From a bacterium (GTDB taxonomy: Bacteria > Patescibacteriota > Patescibacteriia > UBA2169): a stretch of 64,000 bases of DNA. Under the pieces are notes generated by a model. It made no database searches. It saw only the letters and a program-made list of their open reading frames with translations, and was not told the origin of the DNA. A program made the translations under genes and the position numbers. This document shows, piece by piece, positions 38 through 49,102 of this stretch (its first letter is position 1; the number at the start of each line of letters is the position of its first letter). Location: NCBI GenBank assembly GCA_002687895.1, contig NZBL01000003.1, forward strand, positions 20,821-84,820. The letters run 5' to 3'.

Positions 38-2245
38 ATGAATACAAAAGTTTTAATCACAATTGCGATTGCGCTAATATTGGCAGTGCCGAGTATGGCA
101 CAAGCTAGATTTTATGATCCAAACGATATTTTAACTGATGCAGAATTAAATGATGGAAATGCCTTGTCGCGAACTGCGATTCAAAGATTTTTAGATCAAA
201 AAGGCAGTGTATTAAGAAATACAACAGCACTTGTTAATGGAGTTCCAAAGCTGGTAAGCGAAATGATATATGAATTAGGTCAATCTTATGGGATTAGCCA
301 AAAGTTTTTATTGGCTAAACTTCAGCAAGAACAAGGTCTGATAGAAAAGTCTACAGCATCTGATACTAAATTAGATTGGGCAACAGGATATTCTTGCTTT
401 AGTGGTCGATGCAATGAAAAATATAGGGGAATCTATAAGCAATTAGATGCTGCCGCGGACGTGCAAAGGATTTATAATGAACGCAGCCAGTCAGCAGGAT
501 ATTTTGGTTATCAAAAGGATAAAGAAACTAAAACAAGGGATGGTTTTACAGTAAAGCCCGAAAATCAAGCAACTACAAATCTGTATATTTATACGCCATA
601 CAAAGGATCCTTATCTGGAATAGGAGGCAATTTCTTTTTCTCTAGAGTATGGAACCAATATTTTACAGAACGAATATATCCAGATGGCGCGCTTTTGCGA
701 GATAGCGCAACTGGCGAGTATTGGAAAATTAAGAATAACAAAAGAAGGCAGTATATAACTGACGCAATCTACTTATCTGATCATGCGCCCGAAGACGCTA
801 TCACTGTTCCATCAGAGCGTCTTGTTTATTATCAAATAGGCGAGCCTATTACAATTACAAACAATACTGTGGTCAAAACAAATGATTCTGGAGTTATGTA
901 CCTTTTGTCAGATGGATTAAAGCACCGTTTAGTAGGAAGCAGTGCTTTAGCATCTTTGGGATATCATATTGCAGATACTAGCTCTATTACTCCTACTATT
1001 ATTTCCAAAAACGAACTTAATGATCTAGAAGAAGGCGAACCAATTACAGAACAATCACTATACCCAACTGGAATACTTGTAAAAAGCGATGGACCTAGTA
1101 TTTTTTATGTTAAGCACAGTATTAAGCAATTGCTTTTAGATGAAGCAGTATGGCAGGAAAATTTTAATAAGGAGGAGCCTGTGTATGTATCGCAGTCTGT
1201 TTTAGACGGTTTTACTCTTGGAGATCCACTAAGCCTGAATGAAGGCAGCTTGGTAAAGTCAAAAGACGGCAAATACTATACAATTTCCAATAATAAAATA
1301 AAGAGAATTGCTAGTGCTGATATTGTAAAGCGAGTATATGGAATAGCAAGCTTCAATATAGTTCCAGAAGCAAGCGATGAATTGCTTGAATTAACAGATG
1401 CTGGAGATCCAATTGAATATATTGATGATACAGTAGAAGACCCTATAAATTATATTTCCTATGCTGATCGCCAGCAAAATGTAACAATACAAAAAAATCC
1501 ATATTTTGCATTGTTTGATACTTTGATAGCGCCAAAGAGCATGCTTGCGGGCGCAAATTCAACAGTCACGGTCAAATTCAGGAATAGGGGTGATGTGAAT
1601 TGGCCAGCAGGTCAGGTCTATTTAAAATTAATTGATGAAAATCATCCTACAAGTTCGTTTATAGAAAATAATAGAATTCCTTTGGATACAACAGCTACTT
1701 ATAACCGCTTAGCAATGTTTGATGTAGGAATTACCGCGCCAATTGAACCTCAAAAAATCAAGCAATGGTTTATTTTGGAATATACAGATTCAAGCGGAAC
1801 TATTGTAGAAATGCCAGGTGGGCTTCTAAATCAGGAGATCAACGTGATATCTGATGTATCAGCAGAAGTTGTTGAACATGATCTTCCAGTTGCAATTAAA
1901 GCCAATTCACGGCCAAAGCAAGTTGAAATTCATTTAAAGAACAACAGCCGCAATCAAGTTTGGACATCCCGCCGAGCTGCACTTACACTTAAAGGCGGAG
2001 ATGATACAGAATCTGTATTTTATGATCCAGGAGATTGGATAGATAATGAAACAGTCGGAGTTCCAATTAATCAGACGCTAATTCGCCCGGGTGAAACTGG
2101 AACAATTAAATTCACTCTTGATCCCCGCAATGTACGTCCAGCAATTTATAAACTTGTATTTTCCATGGAATTAAGAGATATAGAAGAAACAGTATATATA
2201 AATGGCGAACAATTTTGGGAGCGCTTAATTAGGGTTGATAAATAA
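38..2245 (+). CDS. Secreted repeat protein with N-terminal signal peptide; N-terminal domain has a GH73/glucosaminidase-like A-x4-E-x-G motif (AKLQQEQGL ... LDWATGY); C-terminal part built of ~45-50 aa tandem repeats centred on G-[DE]-P-[IL]; paralog of 12710..14140
   Basis: ORF track 735 aa; signal-peptide-like N-terminus MNTKVLITIAIALILAVPSMAQA; N-terminal ~180 aa align by eye with ORF 12710..14140 (FYDPNDILTDAELNDGNALSRTAIQRFLDQKGS vs DFNQNNIISDFELEDYNSLSLDSIQRFLEQKGS); repeated motifs YQIGEPITIT / LEEGEPITEQSLYPTGILVKSDGPSIFYV / FTLGDPLSL / TDAGDPIEY. Confidence 0.55.
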   Translation: MNTKVLITIAIALILAVPSMAQARFYDPNDILTDAELNDGNALSRTAIQRFLDQKGSVLRNTTALVNGVPKLVSEMIYELGQSYGISQKFLLAKLQQEQGLIEKSTASDTKLDWATGYSCFSGRCNEKYRGIYKQLDAAADVQRIYNERSQSAGYFGYQKDKETKTRDGFTVKPENQATTNLYIYTPYKGSLSGIGGNFFFSRVWNQYFTERIYPDGALLRDSATGEYWKIKNNKRRQYITDAIYLSDHAPEDAITVPSERLVYYQIGEPITITNNTVVKTNDSGVMYLLSDGLKHRLVGSSALASLGYHIADTSSITPTIISKNELNDLEEGEPITEQSLYPTGILVKSDGPSIFYVKHSIKQLLLDEAVWQENFNKEEPVYVSQSVLDGFTLGDPLSLNEGSLVKSKDGKYYTISNNKIKRIASADIVKRVYGIASFNIVPEASDELLELTDAGDPIEYIDDTVEDPINYISYADRQQNVTIQKNPYFALFDTLIAPKSMLAGANSTVTVKFRNRGDVNWPAGQVYLKLIDENHPTSSFIENNRIPLDTTATYNRLAMFDVGITAPIEPQKIKQWFILEYTDSSGTIVEMPGGLLNQEINVISDVSAEVVEHDLPVAIKANSRPKQVEIHLKNNSRNQVWTSRRAALTLKGGDDTESVFYDPGDWIDNETVGVPINQTLIRPGETGTIKFTLDPRNVRPAIYKLVFSMELRDIEETVYINGEQFWERLIRVDK

Positions 2246-3580: not shown

Positions 3581-3775
3581 CTGGAGTGTCTTTATGACTC
3601 TGCTCGAACTTACTTTATCAAAAATTCCTGACTTTTGGAAGCCCGCCACCAGCCGCCGCAAAGCGGCGGCCTGCCTCGCAGAAAAATTGCCTTACCTTTT
3701 TTGATTTTGCGCGCGCCGAGCGGCAAGGATCCATCAGGGCAAAATCAATGGGCGGCTCTGCACTTTCTCTAAAAC

Positions 3776-3850
3776 TGGAGCAGGTGACGGGATTTGAACC
3801 CGCGATCTTCTGCTTGGGAAGCAGACGTTCTACCACTGAACTACACCTGC
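3776..3850 (-). tRNA. tRNA-Gly (anticodon CCC)
   Basis: Reverse complement GCAGGTGTAGTTCAGTGGTAGAACGTCTGCTTCCCAAGCAGAAGATCGCGGGTTCAAATCCCGTCACCTGCTCCA: 7-bp acceptor stem, GTTCAAATCC T-arm, anticodon loop TTCCCAA, encoded CCA. Confidence 0.85.
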
Positions 3851-3852
3851 AT

Positions 3853-3928
3853 GGAGCCACCTCCCGGAGTCGAACCGGGGACCTACGCATTACGAGTGCG
3901 TCGCTCTAACCATCTGAGCTAAGGTGGC
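3853..3928 (-). tRNA. tRNA-Thr (anticodon CGT)
   Basis: Reverse complement GCCACCTTAGCTCAGATGGTTAGAGCGACGCACTCGTAATGCGTAGGTCCCCGGTTCGACTCCGGGAGGTGGCTCCA: cloverleaf with anticodon loop CTCGTAA, GGTTCGACTCC T-arm, encoded CCA. Confidence 0.85.
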
Positions 3929-3940
3929 TCGTTGTAGTCA

Positions 3941-3988
3941 CACGAAAGCTTACAGAAGCCAGCAAGCTGGCTTCTGTAAGCTTTCGTG
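3941..3988. repeat. Perfect 22-bp inverted repeat (hairpin) immediately adjacent to the 5' end of tRNA-Thr, in the divergent region before ftsE
   Basis: cacgaaagcttacagaagccag-caag-ctggcttctgtaagctttcgtg; no flanking T-run on either strand. Confidence 0.6.
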
Positions 3989-4116
3989 CGCCTACCCCTC
4001 TAAATTCACCACTTAACCTCGCAAGCTCAGCCCAAGTGGTGAGTTGTAGAATCTAGGAACCAGTGTGTTTATGTGTTATAATATAGTATGCTACACTGAT
4101 TAGGTCAATTAATATT

Positions 4117-12709: not shown

Positions 12710-14140
12710 TTATTCTATATTATCTCCCAAGATCTCTCCTTCTCCATATGTAACAATCAAATCCAATGGATCGCCAATAGGATGCAGGTCAACTACGCTT
12801 TGAGGCACTTCATGTATATTATCCCATGCATAGCCAAGCTTTTCAAATGCTTCGCCTGAAATGACAGCTCTACGTCTTCCATCTGATATCACATATACAG
12901 CAGAAGATTCAGATGAGGTGATGATGGTTCCGTCTTTAAGCTTAAGTCTGCCAGCGTACCCGTATTGGTTGAGCTCGCCTGGATGAATTGCCAAGGGTTT
13001 TGTGTTTCTAAAATTTAAATCAAGTATTGTGCGATCTATAATTCCTTGCCGCTTTCCATCTTGCACGAAAAATACTGCTCCAGTGGAATTGTCTTGAAGA
13101 AGAGCGCCTGTTGGATATGCAGAGGATAATGTGATGTTGTCTCCTATAATGTATAATTCAAGGTCTTCTTCATTTACCTTTATAACTTCCTCCGGATTAA
13201 ATCCTATTGTGCGAAAAACTTCTTGGGACTCTATTCCGCGAATAGTGTCATCTACTAACAGATAGATGGTTCCATAAGGAGCTTGGAGCAGGGAATAATT
13301 AGCAAACTGAATTGAAGGGCCTATTTCATATGTTTCTAATTCATTTTTGCTGACTTGAATTATGCGCGATGAATCATAGCGAGAATATAGTGCTACACGA
13401 GTCTTAAAAGGCCTGCGATTGCCATTCTGAAGCAGCCACACACCTGGCTCGCCTTTTTCCTGCAAAAGGGTTCCATCAGGATAGTTTCTTACAAAGTACC
13501 TGTTCCATATTCTCCAAAAGTTGAAGTTAGCGCCTATTCTTGATCCGCCTCTGTATGGATTATAGGTATATAATACTGCTGTTGCATTATTAACAGGGGT
13601 AACATTATATCCATCTAAGGTTTTTTTGGTTCTTGCAGGACCCCAGCCAGTAAAAGTTCTGCCTAAGGATTTTAGATCTCTTAGGTATGCTACTCGTACT
13701 TTTTCCGCAAAATCTGATACTTGATTATAAAATCCTTTGAAAGGCGCAAGGCTAGGGTCTGATTTTGAGCATGAATCACAAACCGCAAACCCAGTTGCCC
13801 AGTCTAGTTGATTTTGACTAGGGGATTTGTCTGTAATTAATGATTGCTCCTTTTGAAGCATTGCTAAAATTACTTTTGGGCTTATTTGGTAAATCTGTGA
13901 TTCTTCAAATATAATTTGAGAAGCTGGCTTGCGAACTCCGTCAACAACCTCGGTGAATTGTGCTAAAAAGCTTCCTTTTTGTTCTAAAAACCTTTGTATT
14001 GAGTCCAGTGATAGGGAATTGTAGTCTTCTAACTCAAAGTCAGAAATAATATTATTTTGATTAAAATCAGCAGCACTCACAGATAAGAAAGGTGACAAGC
14101 TAAAGATAAATACAATTATAGACGGCACAATTTTTTTCAT
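12710..14140 (-). CDS. Secreted paralog of 38..2245 (GH73-like N-terminal domain plus GDP[IL]-centred repeats)
   Basis: 476 aa; signal peptide MKKIVPSIIVFIFSLSPFLSVSA; AMLQKEQSLITDKS ... LDWATGF aligns with ORF1; repeats IGPSIQ / IIGDNITLSSAYPTGALLQDNSTGAVFFVQDGKRQ / IGDPLDL. Confidence 0.6.
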   Translation of the reverse strand: MKKIVPSIIVFIFSLSPFLSVSAADFNQNNIISDFELEDYNSLSLDSIQRFLEQKGSFLAQFTEVVDGVRKPASQIIFEESQIYQISPKVILAMLQKEQSLITDKSPSQNQLDWATGFAVCDSCSKSDPSLAPFKGFYNQVSDFAEKVRVAYLRDLKSLGRTFTGWGPARTKKTLDGYNVTPVNNATAVLYTYNPYRGGSRIGANFNFWRIWNRYFVRNYPDGTLLQEKGEPGVWLLQNGNRRPFKTRVALYSRYDSSRIIQVSKNELETYEIGPSIQFANYSLLQAPYGTIYLLVDDTIRGIESQEVFRTIGFNPEEVIKVNEEDLELYIIGDNITLSSAYPTGALLQDNSTGAVFFVQDGKRQGIIDRTILDLNFRNTKPLAIHPGELNQYGYAGRLKLKDGTIITSSESSAVYVISDGRRRAVISGEAFEKLGYAWDNIHEVPQSVVDLHPIGDPLDLIVTYGEGEILGDNIE

Positions 14141-14170
14141 GCATTTATTGTACCATAAATTTTTTAGAAT

Positions 14171-14220
14171 AAAAAAAGCGCATATGAGTCTTTTTAACCT
14201 TTCAGGTTGCTCATATGTGC
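14171..14220 (-). terminator. Rho-independent terminator (minus strand) between a small leader ORF and the secreted-protein gene
   Basis: Minus-strand gcacatatgagc-[loop]-gactcatatgcgc hairpin (CATATGAG/CTCATATG stem) followed by T7. Confidence 0.65.
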
Positions 14221-14265
14221 AATAACGGCTTGACCGTTAATAAATTCCGTGGGTTACCGTGAGCG

Positions 14266-14400
14266 TCACCCGAGCTTGGAATCGTTGGCGGTGGCCGGAA
14301 GGGCCCCATTGACTTCGTCCGTCGTCCTTAATTCTACAAACAAGCTGTTGGGGCCAGCGCGAATAGTCTCACACTCGGCCCTGGAGATGAATTTATTCAT
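14266..14400 (-). CDS. Small ORF (44 aa), GC-rich, with strong SD; candidate leader peptide or small protein upstream of the terminator and the secreted-protein gene
   Basis: Minus-strand aaggagaactgtcATG; peptide MNKFISRAECETIRAGPNSLFVELRTTDEVNGALPATANDSKLG; the start codon lies within the perfect palindrome atgaatttattcat. Confidence 0.3.
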   Translation of the reverse strand: MNKFISRAECETIRAGPNSLFVELRTTDEVNGALPATANDSKLG

Positions 14401-14574
14401 GACAGTTCTCCTTTAAAAGGGAGTTCTGCGGACGGTAAAAGTAGGGGGACGTGAATTAAATGTAAAGGAGCCAATATAATTATACCTTAATTACAATCAC
14501 TACGTTAACTAGCTCTTTCCATAGGAAGCTAGAATATTGTGTATTTTTCTGTAAAGGTATATACTAAAATTACC

Positions 14575-14808
14575 ATGCAAACACAAGCACAAGTTACCAT
14601 CAATTTAGATAAAACACTCAAAGAGAAAGTTCAAAAAAAGGCACGAAAAAAGGGGATAACAATTTCCTCTCTTACGAATTCTTTTTTTAAGGATTTCGTG
14701 GAAAATGAGCAAACGCTTGTTGATAGACTTGAGGAGCGCATGTTTGATAGTGTACTACAATCAACAAAAGTAAAAAAAGAACTCAGTAATCTTGGAAAAT
14801 TACTATGA
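14575..14808 (+). CDS. Ribbon-helix-helix antitoxin (RelB/DinJ/ParD-like)
   Basis: MQTQAQVTINLDKTLKEKVQKKARKKGITISSLTNSFF: typical RHH N-terminus; 4-nt ATGA overlap with the downstream toxin-like ORF. Confidence 0.6.
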   Translation: MQTQAQVTINLDKTLKEKVQKKARKKGITISSLTNSFFKDFVENEQTLVDRLEERMFDSVLQSTKVKKELSNLGKLL

Positions 14809-15167
14809 GTAAGATTCTATTAACTAGATCTTTTACTCAGGAATTATCTAAACTACGAATCACAACAAAACAGGAAATTATTACGGTTATTGTTCAATAT
14901 GAAAAAGGTCTGCCAGTGTTGTTGGATTTATACTCACCAGAAAAAAATATAAAAGTACTCAAAGGATATATTCGTCATAGGAGAGGGGTGCGAATAGCTG
15001 TAGTCTTAGAAATTCAGAAGCACGTTTATGTGCCTTTTTTTATAGCAAAAAAGACAAGTAGAGAAGGCTGGAATCTGAGTAAATATTCCGAAATCTATTT
15101 ATCATCAAAGATTAGACGCGTGTATAGGGATATTAAAAATCAGCTATATGAAAAAATAACAATTTAA
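14805..15167 (+). CDS. RelE/ParE-superfamily toxin-like protein
   Basis: 120 aa; KVLKGYIRHRRGVRIAVVLEIQKHVYVPFFIAKK resembles the RelE/ParE core (R-rich beta strands); translationally coupled to the RHH gene. Confidence 0.5.
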   Translation: MSKILLTRSFTQELSKLRITTKQEIITVIVQYEKGLPVLLDLYSPEKNIKVLKGYIRHRRGVRIAVVLEIQKHVYVPFFIAKKTSREGWNLSKYSEIYLSSKIRRVYRDIKNQLYEKITI

Positions 15168-48478: not shown

Positions 48479-49102
48479 TTATCTTGAATAAAATTCTACA
48501 ATGCGCCTAACATCTATAAGCGCTTTTGGCTCGTCTACATCTGGCTCTGCCACGACTTTTGCCTGCGTGTCTTTCTTGGAAAGCCAACTTGCGGTAGATC
48601 TATCAAGCTCTTTTAGCTTCTCAATTAATGTTGGACTTTTTGCTATGCTTTCTTTTATTGAAACAGTGGCCCCTACAGGAACCTGCGTAGAAGGAGTGGT
48701 AGATTTTTTGCCATTAACCAATATATGCCCATGGCTCACCATTTGCCTGGCAGCGGGCCTGGTTTTGGCAAATCCTAATCTATACACTATATTATCCAAT
48801 CTTCGCTCTAGCATTGTAAGCATTGCCTCTCCAGTGTCTCCTTCTGAATTAATTGCTTTTTTGTAGTAGTTTCTAAATTGCTTTTCCAATACGCCATACA
48901 TGCGCTTTGCTTTCTGCTTTTCGCGCAGCTGAACACCATAGTTGGTAACCTTGATTCGCATGGCGCGCGGACCATGAACTCCAGGCTGATAGCCTTTTCT
49001 TGTTAAAGGGGATTTCGCTGTTCCAGCCTTGTCTAAGTCTGGATGCAAATCAACTCCTTCTCTGCGCGAACGCTTGTATTTTGGGGTTAAATCTCTAGCC
49101 AT
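48479..49102 (-). CDS. rpsD: 30S ribosomal protein S4
   Basis: 207 aa; MARDLTPKYKRSRREGVDL..., S4 domain. Confidence 0.9.
   Translation of the reverse strand: MARDLTPKYKRSRREGVDLHPDLDKAGTAKSPLTRKGYQPGVHGPRAMRIKVTNYGVQLREKQKAKRMYGVLEKQFRNYYKKAINSEGDTGEAMLTMLERRLDNIVYRLGFAKTRPAARQMVSHGHILVNGKKSTTPSTQVPVGATVSIKESIAKSPTLIEKLKELDRSTASWLSKKDTQAKVVAEPDVDEPKALIDVRRIVEFYSR

Follow-up and report, generated by a model that had tools for sequence, protein, structure and literature searches.

Experimentally supported arrest cores of nascent peptides include RAGP (SecM and YwcI), RAPP (ApdA, ApdP, and CruR), and RGSP (Mannheimia SecM) (PMC10987492, PMC12992588, PMC9426467). Such cores work in combination with unrelated N-terminal sequences; proteomes are depleted of them, and the genes that they precede are diverse in function (PMC10987492, PMC12992588, PMC9426467); the SecM-type, or RAPP-like, class comprises SecM, ApdA, ApdP, ApcA, the RQH family, YwcI, and CruR (PMC7897499, PMC10987492, PMC10951299, PMC12992588, PMC9426467). 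Here, we describe a GC-rich element on the minus strand (14512-14171) of a 64,000-nucleotide (nt) stretch of DNA from a member of the Patescibacteria (contig NZBL01000003.1; this whole stretch is called “the window”), which lies upstream of a gene for an uncharacterized secreted protein of 476 amino acids (aa) (12710-14140, minus strand) and whose short open reading frame (ORF) reads I-R-A-G-P at codons 13 to 17. A second group of comparable systems is formed by the short leader peptides that act in the exit tunnel (ErmCL, ErmBL, TnaC, and SpeFL), which stand directly before the gene that they regulate; leaders of the ErmCL type control a Shine-Dalgarno (SD) sequence or a Rho or intrinsic terminator via a defined alternative structure. 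IRAGP corresponds to residues 162 to 166 of Escherichia coli SecM. In the literature, we found nothing on such elements in Patescibacteria, and the literature on SecM/RAPP arrest peptides makes no mention of the phylum.

We read the region as an unannotated, lineage-conserved, autonomous gene of marine Patescibacteria that combines a small ORF with a structured RNA and carries a SecM-like IRAGP motif. As an explanation of the whole, this is the best that we can draw from the sequence, and we would give belief and doubt about equal weight. On its parts, we judge that the element is very probably an independent unit rather than the leader of the 476-aa gene, that the short ORF is probably translated and its motif under selection, and that ribosome arrest, proposed by analogy with the systems above, is a tentative candidate for the mechanism, with the balance tilting somewhat against it.

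The unit consists of its own promoter, a structured RNA of about 300 nt, and an intrinsic terminator. A promoter scan places the promoter at 14479 to 14512, with a ctag-TTAACG −35 box (14508-14503), an 18-nt spacer, and a TATAAT −10 box (14484-14479); it matches the sigma-70-type consensus at 10 of 12 positions, and transcription is predicted to start at about G14472. From the sequence and local folds, a 72-nt 5′ untranslated region follows (14401-14472), in which the SD sequence AAAGGAG (14414-14408), with a predicted pairing partner in a local anti-SD sequence (CUCC-N8-GGAG), precedes by 7 nt the ATG of an ORF of 44 codons plus stop (14266-14400; peptide MNKFISRAECETIRAGPNSLFVELRTTDEVNGALPATANDSKLG). 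Motif alignment and enrichment statistics, given below, single out the codons for I-R-A-G-P (AUU CGC GCU GGC CCC, 14350-14364), and in the folds a GC-rich hairpin (GGGCC-G-AGUGUGA / UCGCGCU-GGCCC, 14351-14381) has those for R-A-G-P as its 3′ arm. Past Pro17 of the motif, the ORF continues for 27 codons. Between its stop codon and the terminator stem lie 45 nt (14221-14265) that are structured (hairpins UUCC..GGGU..ACCC..GGAA and AACGG-UCAAG-CCGUU), contain no ORF, and do not align to the elements of relatives. The terminator (14171-14220) has an 11-bp stem (14220-14210 / 14188-14178), a 21-nt loop with a 4-bp helix, and a U7 tract (14177-14171). Its hairpin (GCACAUAUGAG...CUCAUAUGCGC, 14220-14178) has a predicted energy of −13.7 kcal/mol and is followed directly by U7, i.e., it shows the stable stem-loop and immediate U-tract of an intrinsic terminator; the 21-nt loop is atypical, and a consensus scanner overlooked the terminator because this loop exceeds the scanner's limit.

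The composition of the element sets it apart from its surroundings. The GC content of 100-nt windows between 14200 and 14449 is 51 to 56%, versus 25 to 37% in the flanks and 37.9% in the window as a whole, and the third codon positions of the short ORF reach about 70% GC (GC3) in a genome of 38% GC. The 311-nt stretch folds at −88.3 kcal/mol, compared with −74.8 ± 4.4 kcal/mol in dinucleotide shuffles (z = −3.1), and beats 100 of 100 of these. No further copy of the element occurs within the window. An earlier note on this DNA had described the GC-rich stretch, the SD-led 44-aa ORF, the terminator, and then the 476-aa gene, and all lie on the minus strand where it had placed them. The “perfect palindrome” that it saw at the ATG is an inverted repeat but not a perfect one, having 6-nt arms around a 2-nt spacer (AUGAAU-AA-AUUCAU), and two promoters were not part of its account: the sigma-70-type promoter (14508-14479) and an extended −10 box lying past the terminator, ahead of the 476-aa gene. 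Its fallback reading, that of a separate small GC-rich gene ending in a terminator of its own, is supported, and its suspicion that the short ORF matters is borne out: no part of the element is better conserved than the N-terminal motif.

The evidence for the motif comes from orthologous loci (numbered with the prefix L), which were obtained by exact look-ups and by scans of species-representative genomes and of metagenomes. Of 19 nonredundant elements, 14 contain an SD-led ATG ORF with [R/K]-[A/G]-x-[P/T] 4 to 13 codons downstream, and the motif falls in register once the peptides are aligned, despite nucleotide sequences that hardly align. The window reads ETI-RAGP-N and L105 reads DI-RAGP-T; L100 has S-RAPP-Q followed by a stop, L097a has RGSP, and L099 has C-RGHP with the stop immediately after it. 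RGHP also occurs in L022, L023, L183, and L015b, with RGQP in L098, RGHT in L015a, RGST in L016 and L115, RGQT in L114, and KGST in L027 and L097b. Across the 19 elements (9,570 nt, 9,361 positions), the three frames hold 26 matches to the motif, 15 of which are in frame behind an SD-led ATG. Counted by ORF, the motif is present in 16 of 33 SD-led short ORFs versus 0 of 12 on the reverse strand, with a shuffle expectation of 0.5 ± 0.7 ORFs and a maximum of 3 (composition-preserving shuffles, 57 nt past each ATG); the background rate over all fetched loci is about 0.5% of SD-led short ORFs. The codons switch beneath the conserved residues: Arg is encoded by CGN or AGG/AGA and Ser by AGU/AGC or UCC, and IRAGP in the window (AUU CGC GCU GGC CCC) differs from that in L105 (AUU CGC GCU GGU CCG) at synonymous third positions only. 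Because the amino acids are kept through differing codons, selection would act on the peptide, and by these comparisons the selected part of the ORF is the N-terminal peptide up to the motif.

The RNA around the motif also has recurring features. The SD/anti-SD hairpin layout is present in most related elements, and in 9 of 15 modules, a local hairpin takes its 3′ arm from the motif codons; in L105, this ORF hairpin is kept by compensatory change (GGGCC/GGCCC in the window versus GGACC/GGUCC). Two further short ORFs were seen in relatives. L009 (1170-1290) and L097 (2370-2475) have a second conserved mini-ORF of 11 codons, MLTMLRTRRRR and MRLDLRTSQRL, respectively, each ending in a stop, with the SD-like sequence AAGGAAAGGAU; it is absent from the window. 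The short ORFs of L022 (2684-2833), L023 (2663-2794), and L183 (3-158) open with MK(T/M)IHP, which probably only by chance recalls the start of ribosomal protein bL31 (MKxGIHP), since no more than six residues are involved.

The locus around the element has a conserved gene order (M23 peptidase - GluRS - WecG/NUDIX <> element - 476-aa gene - LigB-like - PriA - Def - Fmt). In about 19 lineages, the element is found at this one syntenic site, where it always points toward the 476-aa gene. The spacer between WecG/NUDIX and the 476-aa gene is 450 to 1,000 nt in about 19 lineages, compared with 62 nt in L011/L018, about 60 nt in L112, 93 nt in L025, 103 nt in L096, and 122 nt in L013; the element is absent from these loci and from L101, is replaced in L019, and is truncated in L021, which keeps only the 3′ hairpin and terminator. 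The DNA of the long spacers has a GC content of 50 to 63% whatever the GC content of the genome (32 to 57%), including genomes of 32 to 40%. Orthologous promoters (ctagTTGACC-17/18-TAnAAT) stand in the same place in L016, L015, L022, L023, and L109, and reading of the sequences finds a ctag/ccagTTGAC(C/T) −35 box in L020 and L021 as well and ctagTTGCTT in L025. Every related element ends in a hairpin and U-run just upstream of the −10 box of the next gene. Loci without the element still hold a −35-like box (L025 and L021) and/or the terminator 3′ arm with its T-run (L011, L096, and L019; remnant ..CGUAUGCGC(U/C)CUUUUUUU), and to us they look like internal deletions. Since the 3′ arm and T-run are kept where the element is lost, they probably double as the upstream part of the next promoter. 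Given these remnants, the orthologous promoter, and the shared site, the element has been inherited vertically and lost repeatedly, and is not foreign. Within the window species, the 476-aa protein is identical on at least 21 public contigs, mostly from marine metagenomes and including one Patescibacteria metagenome-assembled genome, and the 44-codon ORF is annotated in none of 21. The element itself is 100% identical in eight contigs from different samples, so variation within the species is uninformative.

How might such an element work? We posit that transcription would run from about 14472 to about 14171 and that translation would begin at the AUG at 14400. While still inside the ribosome, the nascent peptide would slow or arrest it in a SecM/RAPP-like manner, with the P site occupied by Gly16 and the A site by Pro17. 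The arrested ribosome would melt the GC hairpin at 14381-14351 and cover about 15 nt downstream, and its occupancy of the hairpin would set the fate of the transcript, i.e., its folding, its stability, and its termination or read-through toward the next promoter. The output could be how the 3′ part folds or how stable it is, or how efficiently transcription terminates before the adjacent leaderless promoter, which could be occluded by read-through. In this model, the peptide would not serve the cell as a released, functional protein. By analogy, the peptide probably acts like an arrest or pausing peptide, and we do not file it under the SecM or RQH families. We further speculate that there is a Patescibacteria-specific family of very short, sensor-less arrest peptides of the form T-x-R-[A/G]-x-[P/T], each embedded in an autonomous GC-rich structured RNA that has a promoter and a terminator of its own, in which stalling about 16 codons into the ORF would itself be regulatory, e.g., by setting RNA stability or folding, or by setting termination and promoter occlusion at the neighboring leaderless gene, which encodes a conserved secreted envelope protein; we regard this broader proposal as rather unlikely.

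Several observations weigh against the arrest-peptide gene that we favor. The promoter, transcription start, and translation of the element are all predictions, and the element transcript has no second ORF or SD sequence downstream. Known arrest peptides carry the motif at the C terminus, which the window ORF does not; only L099 and L100 do. The SecM/RAPP class usually has an N-terminal signal or membrane sensor, whereas the window peptide has none and would be only 16 residues long when the ribosome stalls; the 13 residues before the window motif include no hydrophobic segment. Six of 15 motifs end in Thr (RGHT, RGST twice, RGQT, and KGST twice), unlike what the A-site-proline mechanism of SecM/RAPP peptides would call for. 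The conservation of the motif may be partly at the RNA level, because the codons for R, A, G, and P are GC-rich and the hairpin arm that they form is compensated. The element is also dispensable, since at least seven related lineages no longer have it and the motif is missing from four elements (L009, L020, L024, and L026). Finally, the mini-ORF of L009/L097b stops 8 to 10 nt ahead of the terminator stem, which fits translation-coupled termination there; as we read these sequences, it keeps a link between translation and termination alive for the family, but not for the window.

Of the competing explanations, the one that survives best, although we think it unlikely, is that the region is an ordinary, fast-evolving small-protein gene: the 44-aa product would act in trans, RG(H/S)(P/T) would be its functional site, and the RNA would be its mRNA. 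A strong SD sequence and an open frame in most elements are consistent with this idea. The tails of L022 and L183 share K-K-K..V-T..E-T-G-H-Q-L-N-A, and the three ORF indels among L022, L023, and L183 are multiples of 3. A few members are called as hypothetical proteins; exact look-ups and a profile search recovered only five gene calls of the same short-ORF family, two of them over-extended at the 5′ end and all at the same syntenic locus where context is available. However, the tails past the motif cannot be aligned between subgroups and range from 0 to 43 codons, and two ORFs end at or just past the motif (L099, RGHP; L100, RAPPQ). Peptide charge is not conserved, with the window peptide acidic and the L022 group basic, and the post-motif changes among L022, L023, and L183 fall evenly on all three codon positions and mostly alter the amino acid, without the third-position bias that a selected protein would leave. 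Protein function does not explain a GC3 of about 70% in a genome of 38% GC, and a phmmer search of 1.84 billion representative proteins with the 44-aa peptide found no relative beyond a repeat-protein artifact, described below. As a separate candidate, a type I toxin mRNA was rejected: the window peptide and all of its relatives are hydrophilic rather than hydrophobic membrane peptides, and pairing of the pyrimidine-rich 5′ end with the SD sequence over a long range, as in such mRNAs, was no better than in shuffles for nine elements.

A second alternative, which we consider quite improbable, dispenses with the peptide altogether. The element would be a structured noncoding RNA, either a small RNA or a protein-binding one, with the SD-like sequence and ATG serving structural roles and the ORF incidental. 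The GC enrichment, held in all lineages against AT mutational pressure, points in this direction, as do the fold z-score of −3.1, the compensatory changes in the hairpin, the elements of L020 and L026 that lack a motif ORF, and the L021 remnant of only 3′ hairpin and terminator. Against it, the in-frame enrichment of the motif behind SD-led ATGs lies far above the composition-matched expectation, with none on the reverse strand, and the codon switches (CGN/AGG and AGY/UCC) keep the amino acids. The elements also have no overall structure or sequence in common: by MAFFT and short-word blastn, they are barely alignable beyond short blocks within subgroups, and a 3′ motif (UGAGGC..GCCAAUA) occurs in L021, L022, L023, and L111 only; L016 has a variant of it, and the window lacks it. 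Searches for known RNA families were likewise negative. Rfam 15 gave no match in the region at the gathering threshold, nor at an E value of ≤10 in 14050-14600, and its matches in the whole window are three tRNAs, all outside the element region; at an E value of ≤1, it found nothing on five related loci. ARAGORN found no tmRNA and just three tRNAs elsewhere in the window, and a comparison by eye with the consensus elements of RNase P, SRP, 6S, and tmRNA gave no convincing match. The C terminus of the peptide (...ANDSKLG) recalls ssrA tags; the tmRNA searches were negative.

Does the element instead govern the 476-aa gene? The earlier note proposed an attenuator or riboswitch; in such a reading, translation or a ligand would decide whether transcripts from about 14472 form the hairpin and U7, thereby controlling the downstream gene. 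The case for such a leader is one of arrangement: ORF, structured RNA, terminator, and gene follow in order on one strand, the element is always oriented toward the 476-aa gene in relatives, and the mini-ORF of L009/L097b, 8 to 10 nt from the terminator stem, has the classic geometry. In addition, CruR demonstrates that a RAPP peptide and a GC-rich spacer can control downstream transcription (PMC9426467). Against it, the 476-aa gene has a promoter of its own, which is not part of the element (14138-14155, minus strand): an extended −10 box (TGGTACAAT; TGG-TACAAT, 14155-14147) stands exactly 6 nt ahead of the ATG (14140-14138), and the sequence before this ATG contains no SD motif. The arrangement TGnTAnAAT-N6-ATG recurs in 12 distinct loci of the close clade, the window included; of these, L011, L025, L096, and L101 lack the element and have intergenic regions of only about 60 to 100 nt where measured, and L021 has only a remnant, so the promoter is retained without the element. 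More broadly, 77 of 134 distinct homologues of the 476-aa gene have a −10-like box 4 to 9 nt ahead of the assigned ATG. By sequence, the layout is that of a leaderless mRNA with a predicted start at the A of the ATG. Because this ATG has its own −10 box and no SD sequence, RNA reading through from upstream would offer it as an internal, SD-less start.

Nor does the RNA show how an attenuator would switch. A search for an antiterminator was negative: when the terminator lacks its 3′ arm, the 5′ arm remains mostly without a partner, and the best upstream duplex reaches −9.3 kcal/mol. The window ORF ends 45 nt before the terminator, and the riboswitch idea, including the ydaO (c-di-AMP) class, met with no support from Rfam. 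The leader is missing from several orthologous loci and from the 735-aa paralogue (38-2245, plus strand), whose upstream spacer is only 87 nt, and is present at the syntenic site in about 19 lineages; the earlier note had named absence upstream of orthologous genes as grounds for refuting its reading. Taken together, the conserved promoter, the missing antiterminator, and the distant stop codon make control of the 476-aa gene by attenuation or a riboswitch improbable in our view.

Other genes at these loci start in various ways. Within the window, an SD-like motif precedes the first ATG of 7 of 52 long ORFs, so that SD-led genes, such as that for ribosomal protein S4 at 49102, are a minority; leaderless starts may be common in the lineage, with strong SD sequences marking a minority of genes. 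In L026 (2850-2995), L027 (2840-2935), L115 (1895-1995), and L105 (885-990), the 476-aa gene is not leaderless, and its AT-rich leader of about 100 nt consists of long, imperfectly matched inverted repeats such as tacagattacagata...atatctgtatatctgta.

The remaining alternative, that the element is without function and is either a foreign GC-rich fragment gained by horizontal transfer or the decayed remnant of a pseudogene (e.g., of an Ig-like repeat adhesin), has in its favor an atypical GC content and codon usage, a phmmer match to a 1,146-aa repeat protein (E = 3.9e-20), and an adjacent toxin-antitoxin (TA)-like pair that is a species-specific insertion, but it is hardly credible given the same syntenic site and orthologous promoter in about 19 lineages, the 100% identity in eight contigs from different samples, the lack of any match to the element by blastn in phage and plasmid collections, and a repeat-protein match that is 13 weak scores summed. 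The “foreign origin” suggested in the earlier note is likewise not supported. The protein concerned, an Ig-like repeat protein designated P0127, was rejected as a relative: a single repeat (..VETIKAGPDGKFELVSKTPQPSGDISVTATDAAGN..) is identical to residues 10 to 41 of the window ORF at 12 of 32 positions and scores 25 bits, no more than chance would give in a library of 2.4e11 residues.

The neighboring genes deserve brief description. The 476-aa protein, of which the 735-aa protein at 38-2245 is a paralogue, belongs to a large family that is well conserved in Patescibacteria (1,945 matches at an E value of ≤1e-10), with 80 to 85% identity to the homologues of the nearest species and invariant blocks MLQKEQSL and GANFNFW. 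It has no Pfam match, and its NCBIfam and PDB sequence matches are subthreshold and evidently due to chance; the label “GH73-like” given to it earlier is therefore unsupported in these collections. On the plus strand, a TA-like pair (14539-15167) is inserted between WecG/NUDIX and the element in the window species only; its members are an 89/77-aa ribbon-helix-helix-like protein, with weak matches to DUF6364, CopG, and RelB/DinJ, and a 120-aa protein without a family match, and relatives have no genes at this site. In L097 (1000-2475), two GC-rich short-ORF elements of the RGSP and KGST types lie in tandem with a 131-aa gene between them, which starts 9 nt after a TGATATAAT box, and in L019 (2563-2928), a homologous 121-aa gene stands where the element would be. 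Elsewhere on the minus strand of the window, a perfect 22-bp hairpin (cgcacgaaagcttacagaagccagc-ttgc-...; 3940-3990) lies between a promoter-like site and the genes for tRNA-Thr and tRNA-Gly, and a GC-rich stretch after the tRNAs (3640-3775) contains the hairpin GCCGCCGC-uuu-GCGGCGGC; no Rfam families beyond the tRNAs were found in this region (3640-3990).

Why would such an element matter? In the Patescibacteria, or candidate phyla radiation, most genes are uncharacterized, and small ORFs and regulatory RNAs are nearly unstudied. If IRAGP, RAPP, and RGSP peptides stall ribosomes in these organisms, the RAPP-like class would reach a new phylum, and arrest would be possible in a minimal format, with a nascent chain of 5 to 17 residues and no force-sensing domain. 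The arrest peptide would also reside on a stand-alone transcript, an “arrest-peptide RNA,” as opposed to the upstream ORF of an operon, and the family would provide a compact natural set of N-terminal contexts in which to probe what an arrest core needs. A more general point concerns annotation. Because many genes start leaderless at a −10 box, the order of ORF, terminator, and gene can represent two back-to-back transcription units, which is relevant for the annotation of start sites and operons in reduced genomes.

Set beside known systems, the element shares with the trpL, thrL, and hisL attenuators and with riboswitches (ydaO) the order of promoter, short ORF or structured RNA, intrinsic terminator, and gene. 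It differs from the three attenuators in having neither a run of regulatory codons nor a 2:3 antiterminator, and from attenuators and riboswitches in that 45 nt separate its stop codon from the terminator, the next gene is leaderless with its own promoter, and Rfam has no match. The dual-function RNAs (SgrS-SgrT, RNAIII-hld, and SR1-SR1P) are likewise stand-alone, structured transcripts of a few hundred nucleotides with a promoter, a terminator, and one short ORF; the element differs in that it has no identified target complementarity or partner and in that only the N-terminal 5 to 17 residues of its peptide are conserved. ErmCL, ErmBL, TnaC, and SpeFL offer a parallel in the predicted nascent chain, which would be very short (about 16 aa) at the point of action and have no sensor domain outside the ribosome, and in an ORF embedded in alternative RNA hairpins with a sequestered SD sequence. 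Unlike these leaders, the element has no visible coupling to the next gene, and no ligand is suggested.

The element also differs from the SecM/RAPP class. The motif of the element is 4 to 13 codons from the start, compared with the C terminus of a 60- to 170-aa protein; the element shares no operon with a downstream secA, secDF, or yidC; its ORF is set off from the next gene by a terminator and a separate promoter; and six members of its family have Thr for Pro at position 4. R-A-G-P in the window is identical to the SecM core, with stalling in the window peptide a prediction, and the relatives of the element carry RAPP and RGSP, with RGHP and RGQP also fitting R-[A/G]-x-P (PMC10987492). As in that class, the core is conserved and the residues that precede it are variable, and as in cruR-bfrG, a GC-rich structured spacer follows the motif.

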